A stretch of 64,000 nucleotides of DNA from Lama guanicoe (taxonomy: Eukaryota), in contig MU053557.1 in assembly GCA_013239625.1 (NCBI GenBank), positions 1,929,063-1,993,062 of the forward strand, read 5' to 3'. This document shows, piece by piece, positions 13,335 to 64,000 of the stretch; positions within the stretch are counted from its first letter, which is position 1, and each line of letters begins with the position of its first letter. The position numbers were made by a program, and so were the translations under genes. The notes below the pieces were generated by a model. That model was not told the DNA's origin, did not search any database, and saw nothing but the letters and a program-made list of their open reading frames with translations.

Positions 13335-15502
13335 TTGAGCTAAACTCTCCTCCCTTTCAGAGCCATTACTTTAAATTGTTGTGCTTAACAGCTACCCAAC
13401 ATTGCTGCAGAGTCAATATTTACCCTGGGTTGTTTTAGAGTTGGATTTGTTACTGAAAGATCATGACTTCCCAGCTCTCATTTCCTTATTTTAGCTAAGT
13501 ACCACCCTGACCACCTGTTTCAGTGGGTGGAGCAGCAAGAATCCATCCTGACCATCCTCAGACCAAAAGGGTGGCTGACAGTGGGATGTGGCATTGGATC
13601 AGATAACACAGAAAGCCGGGAATCAGATTGAGCAGAAACCAACCCCGGAACCTGGTCTCTAGAGTGCTATGTTTAAGCCCATTGTGCAGTGCAGCCGTGA
13701 AGGCTCGGTTATCTGATTTTATTAAGTTCCTGCTAATCATACTTTTACATAGATGCCAAGTTTGACACATGGCTTACGAAGGGCAAGCAGTCCAATATCA
13801 TAAACTGTGGCCTTGTACAAGGTTTATATAAACTATGATTTTGTCAATTCTAAACCTACAAATGAGATTTAGTTAAAAAGAGGTACTGTAAGCACAAGAC
13901 ACGGCCAAGTACCTAGGACACAATAAATACTCAATAAATGGTAACTATGATCATCTTCATCATTAATAGTGGCCTTTTTCTCTTAAAAGGAACATTCCAT
14001 AGGGCCAAAAGCATGGGGAATCAGAAGACCTGGGTTTTTTTTTTCTAATTTTGATTTTAGAGCTAAACTTTAATAGAATGTGGAAGTTTGAACTCTTACA
14101 CTTTTAAACAAACAAAACCTAAAAATCAGTGATTGGTTGAAAATGGTTTTATGGAAAAACAAATCCGTAACAAAAACTTGGCATTGAGTGTGAAGGCTTC
14201 ACTGTTTGAGCAAAGCGTACAGTTTCCCAGAAGACCTGGGTTTTATTCTCACTCTTCACCTAATGCCCTGATTATAGTGGGTGAGTCCCTTACAACTTGG
14301 CACTTAATTCTCCTCATTTGCCAAGTGGAAATGACCATACTACGCCTTTCTCCTCAAGGTTGTGGAGAAGATCCTATGATACAGAAGGTGATAATGTTTT
14401 GCAATGCATAAGTCACTCCACTAATGTTAGGAGTTGTTCATTCCAGTCCCCTTTAATATCAAAAAGAAACCTGGTATTAGCTTTGATAAATGTAGACATG
14501 CCCTTAATTATTCTTTCACCAATGCCAGCAAGGCCAGTACATTTGTCTGCTATAGATGTATTATCTGTTCCCCTAGGAAATTAACAATAAAAATGATTAG
14601 AGAGTAATTATCTAAACTTCACACTTTAAAGATGAAAACATAACCTGGTGTGCTATTCGTTAATAACCTGGTACATTATATAATTGGATTTCATCTTTTT
14701 TTTTTTTAAGGCATTCACGGTCCTGCTGGCAGAGAGCACACACACATCTATTAGTTTGTGGAAATCAGTGAATAATTCCCAGGTTCTTCTAGCTTAAAAG
14801 AAAATCATGTATGGGCTTTTGATTAACCCTGGTACTGGAGAAGATAACCGAAATTCACAGATAAAAATACATGTTTCAGTTGAACTATTAGCTCAAACGT
14901 CTTCCCCATGTAACATTTCGTCTGGCTAATTTGCTTTTCACCATTTCTTCCCAGGACTCCAACTACCCAGTGCTCAGGCTAATGAGCAATGGAAAGGCTA
15001 AATAAATAAATAAATAAATAAACACATTTTTAAAAAAGGAAGCAGCAGGAGGGAGATAAGAAATAAAACAAGACACGGAGAAACCACAAGCTAAATAATT
15101 GGCTGAAGTAAAATGAGCAAGCACCCTCAAACGCTTAGCTCTTTCAGGAAACAAAACAACCCATTGCCACATAATTTTCTACACCGGCAGTCTGGCAGCC
15201 TGAAAACCACTGCATCTCTATTTCATTTACTTACCGAGATAACCCAGCCAAAGACCCAATTATCATTTGTTGCCCTGGATGGAATTTGAATACTACCTAT
15301 GCTTACTGCATTTTCCAATAAGTAGTCAACCAGCATGTTATATTTTGTCCCAGAAATATTATTCTGATAGTGGCTTCACAGTTGGTGCACCTCTAGCTCT
15401 GGCTGGTACTGGAACATGAGCAGGATACAGATGGGAAACATTTAGGTGCTTCTCTAAACACATTTTCATCCTTAAAGCTTCTACGCCATGCGCAATACCA
15501 AC

Positions 15503-15838
15503 CTTATGGTCATTCGCCTTGTAATCATTGAAGAAAGGCTGGCTGCCTGCCAAAGTGTAGGCACTGCCCTCTCTAACCACGCTGATCCTCTGAGCAGTCA
15601 GCTTGGGGGAGCACGGTCGGGGCTTGGGGGCTTCCCCAGACCCGTAAACACCATCCATTGGTTCAAGGGCCTCTTGGAGAAAACTGTGAGGATATTCCTC
15701 CTTTGGCGACTCTAATTCCTGTCCATCTTCAAAGACCTGCTTCAACACCCGGCCACTGTAGGAGGAAGAGATTTTAAAGCGTATTTTCCGGGGTTTGCTG
15801 TCACTCTTCTGGCTCAGCTTCTTCTCGGGATCCTCCAT
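15503..15838 (-). CDS. GRXCR2: GRXCR2 coding exon 1 (112 aa); glutaredoxin and cysteine-rich domain containing 2, a hair-cell stereocilia protein
   Basis: ATG at 15838; MEDPEKKLSQKSDSKPRKIRFKISSSYSGRVLKQVFEDGQELESPKEEYPHSF...NDYKANDHK; donor AAG|GTTGGT. The three exons (336+222+183 nt) join in frame to 246 aa. Confidence 0.97.
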
Positions 15839-48904: not shown

Positions 48905-49053
48905 GCAGGGTGGGGGTATAGCTTAGTGGTAGAGTACAAGCTTAGCATGCACGAGGTCGTGGGTTCAATCCCCAGTACTTCCATTAACAACAACAAAATG
49001 TTTTTTAATGTTTACCATAATAGTGAAAATGTTGAAAACAATTATATAAAAAT
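48905..49053 (+). mobile_element. tRNA-derived camelid SINE with extended tail
   Basis: Head GGGTATAGCTTAGTGGTAGAG...CCCCAGTAC; TSD ATATTTGTTGACA at 48892-48904 and 49054-49066. Confidence 0.85.
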
Positions 49054-49982
49054 ATATTTGTTGACATAAATATATAAAACAGCCCCCAAATCTCCCTAGC
49101 TTGAAAGTGGTCATTGGCTCGCGGGTCTTTTAGGGAGGAGACCAGGCATCCTGGTCTTCTTTGTCCAGCACTGTGATCAGATGGCTGCTCACACTGCAGT
49201 CTCAAAGCCTGACACCTCCTGCCACAAACTCAGTGCTCAGGTGCTACAGAGCACAGGCTGTTCCCAGAAGGTCCCAGGTCCTCTCCTGCCTTCATGCCTT
49301 TACACCTGTGGTCTCTCAACTGGAATCCCCCCTCCATGCCTTTACGGGGCTAACTACTCCTGCTCATCCCTCCGAACTCAGCCCAGGTGTCAACTCTTCA
49401 GGGAAGTCTTCCCTGACTTCTGCCACCAGAGTCCCCCAAGGGACGACGTGCTGACCCTCATCACACTACTTACCATGCGATTTTATGATAGTCATTTACT
49501 TTGGTGCCCCTTCCAAAGCTGGGAACTACCTAAAAAGATCTCACTGTTGTCAGGGCCCAACACAGGGCCAGACACAAGGTAAGCACTCAGAATATCTTTG
49601 CTGAATGAGTGAATAAACGAGTGACTGAATGACGATCTCTTCGATACTTTCCCACAAGCTCCGGATGCACAATGGAAATGAGACAGGGGGTCGTTCTCTC
49701 TCAACAGCCTTAAAATGCTGCTCCCACCCTCAGGGGCTCAAATGGCCCCACATGGCCGGAAGTGGCTCAAGGCTGCAGAAACCCTAGTCTAAAGTGTTAT
49801 CTAGATGAGCCCAGGGGTGTTCTCCAAACTCGAGATTCTTAATGTTGGTAGCAAAACCAAAGCAAGGCCAGAATCCTGGGAGTGGCTCCTGTCTGGAATG
49901 GTCTGGAAATTTACTTTGGTTCAGACCTTCTAAGCATAAGGCCAGTGCAAGCATGTGTATGTGTATTTATTATAAAAGCACT

Positions 49983-51576
49983 AGGTAGAAAAGAAAGCAC
50001 CGTTGCTCTAAAGCTCAGCAGACGGGCAGGGGAAGGGCGTGTGCAGCTATGAGCTAGAGACCTACCTGGAGTCCAAAGGCAGGACTGGACCCCAGCACAC
50101 TGTGTTCACTGGCCCTCCACACTGGGCCAAGGGAACCCCAAAGCCTCGGATCCTACCCTGGCTGGTGTGGCAGCTGGACGTGGGGCAGCCGGAGGGCAGG
50201 GTCTGGCTGGACCAGAGCCATGTGCACCTCCGCATCCTGCAGAAGCATGGTTTGCAGCAGGACGCCTAGCAAGAGGACCTCCACATCTTCCAGCCTGGGG
50301 ATGCCAGTGGTCCTACACCCCTGGGAAGGACAAGCCTGACCTGCAGACCTGGAAGAGGAATTTCCAGTCTGCCCCGAACTGGAAGGAAGTGTTGCATTCA
50401 GCCAAGAATAGAGCAAGGACCCCCGTGACCTGCACTAGATCTGAGAGTTTGTGACCTCAGGAGTTGGGGACTTTCCTGAGTCAGATACCTCTCCAGATGC
50501 CAGTGACAGATGTGGTACCTCTAATACCCCAGAGGAGTTCCTGAGTCGCACGGGCTTGGCCCCAGTACCAGACACTGGGCTCTCGTGTCTGGCTGTGGCC
50601 CCTGAGCACCCTCCTGACCTTTTGCTGAACCCCAACTTAGAGATCCCAGCTCCCTGCCCAAACTCGGACCCCCACTCCCACCCCAGAAAACCCACTGAGG
50701 CAGCTGTTGCTACTAGAGGAAGATGAGTGCCAACTGTGGAATGGGAGGGGCAGGGGCTGGGACAGTGGGTCCCCTTACACTCTCTCAGTCTCCCTTTTCA
50801 CATCACTGCTGCCACTGCTGAGAGTGGGAATTCAGGGGACCACTGTCCTCCTGGGTGCCAAGTCTTTCAGCACACTGTCCTCTGCCTAAAGGACCTATGG
50901 CTAGTGGGGTCAGAAACAGGGGACAGGACACTGCCTGGGCAGCCAATAAGACTATCAGGCCCCGGGATGTGACAGGCTACAGGCGGCATGTCCTGAGCTG
51001 CCTGGGCAGGGAGGCGGTAGGATCAGCTCCGTGGAGAGCCTGGCAGTGCTTTGGGCCCAGAGCCTGGGGCACTGTCACTGGTACTGGGCTGTGGCAGGAG
51101 CCCCTCACTGGTGCTGGTCCCCAACATGATGGCGAGGTCCCCAAGAACAAGAAGGGAGGCATGTTCGACCTGGGACCTTTTGTGGCAGATCTGATCATCT
51201 TCAAGGAAGGAAGCAGACACTCATTATCTACACCCTATAGTTCTGTGTCAGGGAGTCATTGCCCCAGGGCCAGCTGTGGATCAAGAGTCTCCTGATGGTC
51301 AAGGTGGTTCCCATGTGTCTCAGCTCCCTGCCAGATGTGGCCCAGTTAGGAGTGCCTTCTCACTGGAGAATACCAGAGACCTGTACATTTCCACCAGCCA
51401 TCCACTCCCCTTCACCTCGGACCAGTTCAAGGCCTACCTCCAAGACCTGGTCAAGGACGTGGATTTCTAGGTCACTGGAAAGGCCTGAGCCTTCCCTCCT
51501 CATGAGTATAGTCCCCACCCTGCACTTCAACCAATCAACTTTTTCTTGCCACCATCACGAAAAAACCGTCAAACAT
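49983..51576 (+). pseudogene. IRF3: IRF3 retropseudogene (semi-processed, one retained intron)
   Basis: Collinear IRF3-like peptides across frames: GTPKPRILPWLVWQLD, KHGLQQDA, GKDKPDLQTWKRNF, VTSGVGDF, QVFQHTVLC...GSETGDRTLPG, DGEVPKNKKGGMFDLGPF, MVKVVP, SLENTRDLYISTSHPL...FKAYLQDLV. Start ATG>AAG (50129), several stops and frameshifts, ancestral TGA at 51486-51488, decayed polyA signal AATCAA (51533-51538), A-rich tail, candidate TSD AAAGCA(C/A)T. Confidence 0.95.
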
Positions 51577-54500
51577 AAAGCAATGTACAGACAGTGGAAA
51601 CCCATACTCTGACAGTGGCCCATACTATGATTTTCCAGAGACAGCCATTGTTAAGAGTGTTTCAGAGGTTGACATGCAGTGAGCCTGAAAGACAAATCCA
51701 GTTTACAGATGATCGTGTACAATATTTTTAAAGATAATTCTATTAGTTGCCACGAAATAAAAAAAAATCAAGAGTTTCATGGAATTGGGATACTTTTATG
51801 GAGCTTTGAAGGTGGCAGAGAAGGAAACGGACTACTACAAAGCAGTGTGAAAAGTACTGTGATTAACAGCTTTCCTTGGAAAACTCAAAGATCCGCCACC
51901 CTATTGGCAATGATTCGCTGCAGCTGAGTGGTGCCATTTGCTTTCACATAGGGTGTGCTCCCAAGGTTGTCATAGTCCCTACCTGACCCATTTATAAAAC
52001 CAGTCTGGCCCCCATGTGCATTTGAGTTTGCAATCACTGATGTCTGTCCTTACAAAACCCTCTGTAATACTATGAGTATCGTGAGCACTGCCTATAATCT
52101 CTTTTCTATTATATCCGTGTCAGCACATACAGCTCTACCTACATATTCCTCTGGGTGACGACATTATGCTATATCGAACCAATCCCTTCCTGATGGATGT
52201 TTAGGTTAGTTCCATTTATCTCTAGTTACAAACACTGTAACAGTAAATGCTTTTGTATATATCTTTGGGTATTTGGGCATTTCTCTTGAATAAACTAAAT
52301 GTGAAATGACTTGCGTGAAAAGAAATACATCTTTAAATTTTCAGCAGATAATGACAAAATGCTGAAGATGGGTTAGAATCCAGGTCATTTTTTTTTTTTT
52401 TGCCCCAAGCAAGGGGCAAAGAGTGGCAAAGCTGGAGAGTGACATCAAGAGATGAACTGTCCAACATTTGAGCCCTTTTCTTCCATAACCATACTCCTCT
52501 ACTCCTAATCTACCCACAGCTGACTGGCACAAATACTGCAAGTGGAAGAGGCAGACTTAGCAGGACGAATGTATTTTAGAGTTCTAGCTGAAAAGTTATT
52601 TCACAGTCATAAAGTGGGCATGAAAACAAAGTGAGATAATCATTCAGGTTATATTTATGGGATTCTCCATTTGTTATTAAAAACAAAAGAAATTTTCATC
52701 CACATATATTGATTAGTCTTTAGGCTTTTGGCATTTCTTATTATTTTATCTAAACAAGATACTGTACTCCTTTACTTTCTGTTTCAGGCTTATTTCCCCT
52801 TCTGTTTGATGTATGTTAACCTGATGTTACTGAGTAAAGGCTGCTTACGTTTCCAAGGTTTGGGCTCTACTGAGTGGAACCAAAGATAAAAATCTGGGAT
52901 CAAAATTACAATAAGGAATTGACTAAAATAGCCTCTTTTTTTTTTTTTAAACATGATAAATGCAGCGAATGGGATGACTTGAAGGTTAAGAGTAGAGGTT
53001 GCCTGGGTAGACGTCCTGACCTCCCTCAAGCACTAGCTGGGGCAAAACATAACCCCTCTAAGTCTGTCGCCTCATCTATTAAGACGGGGTAATAACAGGG
53101 TGATAGTTCTTTGCAGAGAATCTGACACAAAATAATGTTCTTTGTTATTATTTATTCTAACATAATAGCCAACCCCACCCCCTCTGAATGTCCTCTAGGA
53201 TGCTGCAATGGCCAACACCACATAAGCCACTGGGCAGCTACTGTGTGAGCTGACACTTTATGTAATGGGCAAATCAGAATGAATAACTCCTTGAGGAAAA
53301 GAAGCCAGGAGTGGGGCTTAGTTTTAAACTGTGCTTTAGATGCAACACGATAGATAATAAGAGGCCTGGTAAGAGGATAATGGCTAGCCTTTACTTAGCA
53401 CTGACTCTGTGTCACACTCTTTGAAGCATTTTATAAGCATTTTCTCAGTATACGCACACAACGATCCTATGGAACAGGTGCTAGTTAGCATCCCTGTTTT
53501 ACAGATGAGAAAACCAAGTACAGAGTGTTTTTAATCAACTCGCTCTAGAGCATCCTCTTATTCAGGAAGATGGCATCGGCCTTCTGACATCAGAGCTTAC
53601 AGTCTTAACCACTAGAGTAAGTTAGAAACAATGACAGAAAGAGGTCAGTTACAGCCAGTAATATCTTTCAGTCAACTTCTATGCACCAGACACTGGGCTA
53701 CCAACACGTAGTAGGAAGTTTATTCCTTATGTCAAGCCTAAGGATTACATATTCCTCATAGCACTTTTATGGATGGGACTTAGAGCTATTGAACACCCAG
53801 AGTCACAGAGCTCTTAATGGTAGAAGTGATTTTCCAAAGCATGTCTGCAGATTCCAAGTCCTGAGCTTTCATCCTTGGAATGCAGTAAGAATTCCAAACA
53901 CAAATGAGTCATCCTCACCTCTCAGCAAATATTTATTAAGCAGAGATTTATTAACAGAGATTATGCAGAGGAGAGATAATTTATAGGGACAAGTGAGTAA
54001 ACAACATTTTCTATAGTTAATATATAATTAGCATCATCACAGGGCCCCCAAAAATCTAATTGATTTGACAAATGTCATCTACAGACAGTTACAGGAAAAC
54101 AATTCTAATTCTCATTTTAAAAAAAGAGGAAGCCTTTTGTGTATCACGTATTTTCACATTATCCTTGAAGACCTACCTGTGAAGAGAGGCATCTGGGTCT
54201 AATCAGGGCATTTAGGGAATTACTAAGTTTTGCAACTTTTCCTGCCTGCAATCACAAGTACAAAGTTGTGGTTACTCAACAGCCTAGGCAAACAGTCAGC
54301 TTTTGCACAGACTTGCCCTGAGTTTAATAGAATTAAGGTTGCATCCTGCTCAGGGTTTTGAATCAAAACATGTCCTGATTTCATCAGCAAAGAAACAGTG
54401 AAGGAAGAGAAGGAAGACGGGTTGCGATCACAGCCTTCTTCCTTTGTGAGGCGCAGTATCTGTTAGGGATTAACATCTACTTAAAGCAGTTTCAGAGCTT

Positions 54501-62674: not shown

Positions 62675-63052
62675 ATGGATGATGTGACCTTACTTGATCT
62701 TCTGGAGTGCCCCGTGTGCCTTGAAAAGCTCGATGTCACAGCCAAAGTCCTCCCTTGCCAGCACACCTTCTGCAAACCATGTCTCCAGAGGATTTTCAAG
62801 GCCCACAAGGAGCTGAGGTGCCCCGAATGCCGGACCCTGGTGTTTTGCAGCATCGAGGCACTGCCGGCCAACCTGCTGCTCGTGCGTCTCCTGGACGGGG
62901 TGCGCTCGGGGCCAGGCTCGGGCAGACGGGGCTCCTTCCGCAGGCCCGGCGTGCTGGCCTCGCAGGACGGCAGGAAAAGCAGGACTCAGCCCGGAGGTCT
63001 GCAGTGCAGCCCTTTCCGGCCGGTGCCGAACATCAGAGTCCACATGGATGGG
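62675..63052 (+). CDS. SH3RF2: SH3RF2 first coding exon (126 aa, C3HC4 RING E3 ligase domain); gene continues beyond the window
   Basis: AAAATGG start; [36 protein letters not shown]...CPEC...[13 protein letters not shown]; donor GGG|GTAAGA at 63052/63053; polypyrimidine tract and CAGCAG acceptor at 62573-62578; GRXCR2-SH3RF2 adjacency agrees with recalled human synteny. Confidence 0.95.
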
Positions 63053-64000
63053 GTAAGAAAGATCTGATTTGTTCACATCATCGTGTCCACTTGGAGGCTG
63101 GGTTTGTGTGCATCGCCCGTGAGAGGTTCTCTTCTTTTAGTTACATTTCAGAGAGCGCCGCGGAGGATTCCCTGGGGATAGATTTCTGTGGGCGGCGATA
63201 GTTGTGCTAGGATTTGGTGGAATCCTGAGCCTCTCTAATCCATCCGGGAATTCTTAGCATTGTTACAGCTTCCTAGGTTCTCCCTGCTTCTTGTCCAGAA
63301 AGTGGTAGGTCAAGGAAAGCCTTCTTGCTTAGATTTTTGGTCTCTCATTTCTGCTGTTCTGAGGCCAACCACAGCAGGGGAAATGCAGAGGGTGGGAAAA
63401 AGAGAGAAAACAAATCTAACCGCTTGCTGCTTTTGAGATCTCTGAGAAGTTTCCAAACGTCGGGTTTTGCTTGTATTTTACCCAGATCCATCTTTCCACT
63501 CCCAGTCATAAAGCAACATTATGACAATGCTCGTTCTTAATCGTTCGAGGTTATCAAAGACACCTGATGCCCAAAGTTCATGCGGGAAGGAAGCGGGTAT
63601 GTGGGTGGAGTGACTGGCAGGACAGGCTGGGCTGTGAAAGTACAGCAGAGGTGTCCAGGAGCCGTTCTTTAACAAATGCATAGAACACACACAAAATGCA
63701 CATCGGAGGCTGCAATAAAAAACAAACAGACCCAGTCGAGCCTCTCAGGAGATCACCCAGCAATGCTTTGGGGGGTTTGGATAATGGGAATTGCTCTGTC
63801 CAGCCTTGCAAGCCCATCTTAGGACTTTAACCTGGCTGTGAGTCTCGTTGTGGGGATCCTGGTAAAGGCACATCTCAAGAGAGGGACGTGGTCTTTGTGA
63901 CTCCAGCAGGATTATTTGCTGTCACCCCTGGAGTTAGTGTGTCCAACTGGACATGGCGAGCTGTGGCCTGGATGGTTGGCATTCTTCGAAAGTCTGAGCT

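Follow-up and report, generated by a model that had tools for sequence, protein, structure and literature searches.

A decayed copy of IRF3 lies at about 49985-51580 of the 64,000-nt stretch of Lama guanicoe DNA analyzed here (the window), and is a real, well-supported semi-processed pseudogene, that is, a pseudogene of a known kind. Exon-like IRF3 sequence runs up to 50722 and again from 50823, and the 100 nt in between (50723-50822), starting with ATGAGT and ending in GAG rather than CAG, are IRF3 intron 5 as judged by homology to rodent read-through sequences. Five G-runs occupy the 5' half of this segment, and a stretch with 84% pyrimidines extends over 50773-50797. A previous reading made from the sequence alone had placed the break in IRF3 homology at exactly these coordinates, and the ATGAGT start, the G-runs and the pyrimidine-rich tract that it listed are all seen in the letters; its statement that the segment ends in AG is correct, and the exact end GAG, with the decay of CAG, had been missed. 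The copy is long dead and likely of stem-cetartiodactyl age. Its parts are as follows.

49985..50128 (+): 5'-UTR equivalent, exon 1 joined to the start of exon 2; 5' limit approximate, N-terminal extensions of parental proteins align here
50129..50293 (+): coding part of exon 2, interrupted by one in-frame stop and with the start codon decayed to AAG
50294..50460 (+): exon 3 equivalent, 167 nt vs 172; several frameshifts
50461..50722 (+): exon 4 and exon 5 equivalents, joined without an intron
50723..50822 (+): retained IRF3 intron 5, 100 nt; donor +1 G>A, acceptor decayed to GAG
50823..51188 (+): exon 6 (IAD) equivalent, 366 nt vs 381; frameshifted, matching PDB IRF3 chains at E about 1e-16
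51189..51303 (+): exon 7 equivalent, 115 nt vs 116; the preceding 1.1-kb intron is absent
51304..51470 (+): exon 8, coding part, to the stop codon
51471..51559 (+): 3'-UTR equivalent, in which 51533-51538 (AATCAA) is what remains of the poly(A) signal
51560..51579 (+): decayed poly(A) remnant, six A and then A-rich

The IRF3 identity of the copy is firm on the alignment evidence: alpaca IRF3 residues 49-466 align to 50132-51467 in shifting frames, and the exon-6 frame gave eight matches in the PDB, all of them IRF3 (best E 6.6e-17). Pfam matches were weak and under the curated cut-offs, the IRF domain giving an E of 0.0013 for the exon 2 part, and no relatives of the 82-residue read-through frame were found in the PDB or among longer proteins. 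The 100-nt segment is real and no assembly artefact, because a DNA contig (run X1) spans it, covering 49900-50939 unbroken, with no gap and only 2 other letters.

The exon equivalents measure 165, 167, 72 and 190 nt before the 100-nt segment, and 366 and 115 nt after it; human exons 3, 4, 6 and 7 are given as 172, 71, 381 and 116 nt in the accessible part of a supplement (PMC11914300). An isoform review assigns 127 residues to the IRF3 “exon 6” in its accessible text; as 381 nt correspond to these 127 residues, the numbering is fixed and the retained piece is intron 5. Frameshift-aware alignment against 12 IRF3 proteins gave a sole large insertion, at the exon 5/6 junction, which the aligner reported as three pieces (17, 48 and 33 nt); no indel elsewhere is longer than 19 nt. 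By their exon joins and lengths, the five other coding introns are absent from the copy. The sequence-only reading, which had proposed that the five other coding junctions are spliced, agrees with both the exon lengths and the alignment, and the presence of further parental introns, which it had named as contrary evidence, was not observed. Divergence from the parent is considerable: 63 of the 437 parent-fixed sites differ (374/437 match), with a K2P distance of 0.16.

Both ends of the copy also follow those of a mature transcript. At the 5' side, the N-terminal extensions of a lemur-type protein (P0083), a Peromyscus protein (P0043) and a buffalo protein (P0024) align at about 49985-50130; the extension of the alpaca X1 isoform, for which no match was found upstream of 50132, may consist of intron-1 sequence, and intron 1 (the 5'-UTR intron) was probably spliced out too. 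At the 3' side, likeness to the read-through isoforms P0045 and P0089 extends to about 51558 and ends there; the parental match stops about 21 nt beyond the decayed poly(A) signal, and the A-run starts at 51560. The copy thus ends in an A-rich tract past a decayed poly(A) signal, in support of the polyadenylated template previously proposed. On the other hand, the best candidate for a target-site duplication matches at 7/9 nt, a score reached by 84% of 150 shuffles; decay could have erased one.

The homology of the segment to the parental intron was assessed through back-translated rodent read-through proteins, not through parental intron DNA. The 326 proteins scanned form a redundant set that reveals only frame-keeping retention; 254 of them carry the exon-5 end motif. 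In 233 of these, exon 5 is joined to exon 6; in 13, exon 6 is skipped; and the remaining eight differ, among them four (two from mole-rat, two from marmot) in which the exon 5/6 junction is the precise site of an in-frame insert. Besides, one partial record from mouse starts inside intron 5. Against the mole-rat insert, the segment matches 39 of the 50 codon-fixed positions (17.5 bits, shuffle mean -21); the corresponding values are 34/50 for marmot (28.2 bits, shuffle mean -17) and 36/45 for mouse (28.2 bits, shuffle mean -15). In each of the three rodent tests the score was equalled by none of 300 dinucleotide shuffles, and none of 300 GC-rich 97-mers from the window reached the score in the mole-rat test. 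At the junction, the spliced mole-rat form has Gln and the retained forms have Arg; the Arg for Gln in the rodent read-throughs implies that the parental intron begins with G, and that the A in the copy is derived. These results uphold two claims made from the sequence alone, namely that the segment is the intron preceding the IAD exon in the parent (three rodent inserts match, each with 0/300 shuffles) and that its donor G>A is a derived change; a lack of likeness to the parental intron, which would have spoken against the first of them, is not what was found, the homology being far above chance. Wider searches gave no parental intron DNA: the exon-6 profile produced 110 pattern matches in metagenome contigs and 94 in viral contigs, none confirmed; the donor-site pattern occurred at 40 metagenome loci, none of them IRF3-related; and plasmids yielded no match. 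Among the reads of four runs placed at 80% likeness, only one is less than 90% alike, and is perhaps parental.

Regarding its class, the copy shows what is expected from a processed pseudogene (PMC4151081): similarity to the transcribed part of the parent, which aligns from the 5' UTR through the poly(A) site; absence of most introns; a poly(A) tail, now decayed, at the last transcribed base; and a site away from the parent. As for this last point, a dromedary model over the same copy (KAB1281075.1, P0001) lies on a contig of 120.7 Mb, and the intact dromedary IRF3 (KAB1273305.1) on a different one of 77.3 Mb; likewise, the fin whale copy record (KAB0392840.1, P0002) is separate from the intact IRF3 record, and neither a second IRF3 piece nor an intron-complete duplicate was found in the 64-kb window. 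The remnant intron is homologous to that of the parent, as seen via the rodent read-through proteins, which makes the copy a semi-processed one. Parental introns and flanks are not kept, as they would be in a segmental duplicate, and the reading frame is broken (start codon lost, stops present, 11 deletions), as is not the case in a functional retrogene. A DBD-only protein made from the copy was considered and rejected, the start codon being lost and exons 2-3 bearing a stop and frameshifts. RNA-library contigs (run X15) cover 49900-50537 and 51122-51700; they differ from the window at 2-6% of letters, extend beyond the copy on either side and leave the intron uncovered. Such contigs cannot show transcription, and DNA carry-over, or read-through, from a related animal is suggested as their source.

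Semi-processed pseudogenes are an established class in the accessible text of several papers (PMC4151081, PMC2850357, PMC5470649), having been described by Zhang, Cayting, Weinstock and Gerstein (2008), as quoted in PMC2850357, and the class also being described by Kazazian (2014; PMC4151081). Like the members described in PMC2850357 and PMC4151081, the IRF3 copy is mRNA-derived, has lost most introns and keeps a remnant parental intron; unlike them, it keeps an internal intron whole, along with the exons on either side, and its age is such that camelids and a whale have it in common. The rodent Ins1 (preproinsulin I) retrogene also keeps one parental intron, but is a working gene (PMC4151081), whereas the IRF3 copy has lost its start codon, its frame and both splice sites. 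Closer in fate are ovine RPSAP8/RPSAP9 (PMC2850357) and the TMF1 insertion in CYBB (PMC4151081), reported there as dead retrocopies with intron sequence; nonetheless, RPSAP8/9 keep part of a snoRNA-bearing intron (PMC2850357), and TMF1 stopped at a poly(A) site within an intron (PMC4151081), whereas the IRF3 copy is full length and ends at the normal poly(A) site. The same intron as in the copy is retained in models from Fukomys damarensis (X1 and X2; XP_010639013.1, XP_033621781.1), Marmota monax (P0270, P0271) and mouse (CRA_c; EDL22784.1), but these belong to the live gene, of which they are annotated as isoforms and which has G at +1; in mole-rat and marmot the frame is kept. A literature search, which covered few subscription papers, found no publication on this IRF3 copy.

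The dead copy has been annotated as a protein gene in two species, under the name IRF3 (1125 aa) in dromedary and as a hypothetical protein in fin whale, the fin whale model KAB0392840.1 reading through intron 5 in another frame. Its junction reads Lys-Met-Ser, so the donor G>A is common to camelid and whale; the whale intron ends in Gln (CA-G kept), and the acceptor is thus intact there. The camelid and whale copies have 6/142 derived sites in common, against 0/250 and 0/320 for the parents as controls; these controls are partly circular, the fixed sites having been defined from close relatives of the same parents. Parallel CpG decay could account for the three G>A changes among the six sites in common, and the orthology of both copies rests on shared changes, not on synteny. 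Agreement between camelid and whale is 47/56 readable sites in the intron and 117/142 sites in the exons; on these counts, intron 5 is kept no better than the exons. Three unnamed fragments (P0085, P0087, P0102) have 4/66, 3/59 and 4/65 derived sites in common with the copy; P0122 and P0106 hold intron 5 but have 0/42 and 0/18, respectively. In a tree of 24 rows, the copy is sister to eight cetartiodactyl IRF3s (83/84), with 96/93 for the cetartiodactyl crown; the branch of the copy is long (0.5), its placement is not starred, and the stoat row is a frameshifted isoform that was left in. Fourteen diagnostic columns show the outgroup state at five, the cetartiodactyl state at two, and unreadable or other states at seven. 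Altogether, the tree and the common derived sites suggest that the copy likely arose on the cetartiodactyl stem, before camels and whales diverged. That stem dates to over about 60 million years ago. Regarding other fragments, P0122 and the cluster of P0086 represent another fragment of an IRF3 pseudogene, which keeps intron 5 and has lost the intron between exons 6 and 7; it is closer to the parent just after intron 5, and is either an outgroup ortholog or an independent capture of intron 5. P0081 and P0084 are further pseudogene-like IRF3 fragments, from orthologous or independent copies.

As to the origin of the copy, we hold it to be probable that intron 5 was retained by leaky, unregulated splicing, and that the resulting RNA was copied once by L1 in the camel-whale ancestor and decayed neutrally afterward. 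The template would have been a polyadenylated IRF3 RNA in which intron 5, short, G-rich and the last one left, was simply unspliced, and the L1 machinery would have reverse-transcribed it, likely in a single event in the germ line of that ancestor; after insertion, neutral decay would explain the present state of the copy. L1 is inferred as the agent from the class of pseudogene, because the target-site duplication is not recoverable. Retention presumably came first and mutation later, the donor G>A being likely among the few percent of sites changed before the camel-whale split; the chance of donor death in the shared stem is about 4% per site or less (6/142). There remains the oddity that the sole retained intron is the one whose donor died early.

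A different view of the template is that it was a stable, regulated intron-5-retaining IRF3 isoform (an NMD target, a detained intron or an insert-bearing protein) conserved among placentals, of which the copy would be a fossil; we consider this unlikely. Reading retrocopies as records of old transcripts is in itself established, to judge from the title of Shemesh et al. (2006). In favor of the regulated isoform, in-frame retention of intron 5 is seen in four of the 254 proteins that carry the exon-5 end motif, the mouse partial record starts inside the intron, two of the three mole-rat isoforms listed retain it, and intron 5 is unusually recognisable between rodents and artiodactyls. Furthermore, all other introns, the 84-nt one included, were removed, which leaves intron 5 as the last, and the rodent models show that the live gene can retain it; these read-throughs are gene models whose underlying RNA support is not visible. 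On the other hand, both published regulated IRF3 retention events that were found concern other introns, which are spliced here. In the pig, LPS is reported to raise the retention of “IRF3 intron 5” (PMC7352703), which was rejected as support since, in the accessible text, that intron is one of 1115 nt between exons of 380 and 116 nt, after the IAD exon; similarly, the in-frame IRF3 intron retention of human T cells (PMC11914300) was set aside because the accessible text places it in the 84-nt intron that follows exon 3. These events (1115 and 84 nt) do not sustain what the sequence-only reading had hinted at, an old regulatory isoform. The accessible part of the IRF3 isoform review lists no isoform with intron 5 retained; no statement on IRF3 intron 5 was found in the accessible passages of PMC11602592 or the reference list of PMC12391537, although long-read isoform tables in their supplements may bear on it, and no study of IRF3 intron-5 retention was found in a search covering few subscription papers.

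The length of the intron also argues against regulation, since it is not tied to one frame: the present copy has 100 nt and the whale copy, by implication, 99, against about 98 in mouse, 102 in both P0106 and marmot, and 123 in mole-rat. It had been proposed that retention would shift the frame, giving a DBD-only product or an NMD or detained-intron target. This holds for 100 nt, with a TGA at 51127 in the shifted frame, 59 nt before the exon 6/7 junction; it does not extend to the 99 nt of the whale copy or the 102 nt of another copy, which would keep the frame, and the frameshift/NMD argument is thus unsafe. In addition, four other IRF3 proteins from baboon, Peromyscus and rabbit (P0075, P0263, P0294, P0297) contain about 25-30 additional in-frame residues in the region of exons 3-5, probably from retention of the short introns 3 and 4; as such inserts occur in other annotated isoforms, the leakiness of short introns in IRF3 looks general, which speaks against a regulated event. 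We give little credence to the broader proposal that intron-5 retention is an ancient, conserved placental IRF3 isoform, abundant in the germ line before the camel-whale split and recorded in the copy as a dated fossil. If true, an in-frame intron 5 would put 33-41 residues between exon 5 and the IAD, an unstudied IRF3 variant. The copy itself does not count as evidence of a regulated isoform.

The order of events could also be reversed relative to leaky retention, the +1 G>A having occurred first, in a splice-dead IRF3 allele or in a transcribed, decaying duplicate, and having forced the retention of intron 5. The early loss of the donor speaks for it: the only retained intron has the dead donor, the change is common to the whale (Lys-Met-Ser, P0002), which the sequence-only reading had not recognized, and with 6/142 comparable sites changed in the shared period the coincidence would be about 1 in 25 or rarer. 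Nonetheless, no intron-complete duplicate was found in the window or among the proteins, and wild-type rodent genes are annotated as retaining intron 5 with G at +1. An IRF3 null allele would, moreover, be far rarer than leaky wild-type transcripts on population-genetic grounds, which counts against the mutation coming first; we judge this order improbable. Far less likely still is that a fully processed copy regained intron 5 later, by gene conversion or recombination with the parent. Long homology in exons 5 and 6, either side of the intron, would have allowed it, but intron and exons are equally diverged between the camelid and whale copies, and residues in the outgroup state occur in exons 4-7 on either side of the intron, with no sign of a younger tract. 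Finally, an unrelated insertion, an assembly error or a segmental duplicate, suggested at most by the present non-canonical splice ends (ATG at the start, GAG at the end), is ruled out by the intron-5 homology in three rodents, the unbroken DNA contig and the absence of the other coding introns.

On the preferred reading, the copy is a dated record of a polyadenylated IRF3 RNA, spliced except for intron 5, of which a copy was made in an early even-toed ungulate, in its germ line. It shows no new mechanism, but points at an IRF3 intron for which no retention study was found in the literature searched, and may serve as a presence/absence marker for cetartiodactyls. Its annotation as a protein gene in dromedary and fin whale can also mislead searches for camel IRF3.

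Concerning the surroundings of the copy, a coding exon of a neighboring gene with a RING domain lies at 62675-63055 (+) of the window, and a coding exon of a second neighboring gene at about 15500-15835 (-); searches gave a RING domain but named neither gene, and they are putatively SH3RF2 and GRXCR2, respectively. A tRNA-like SINE head is present at about 48908-48985, about 1 kb upstream of the copy.
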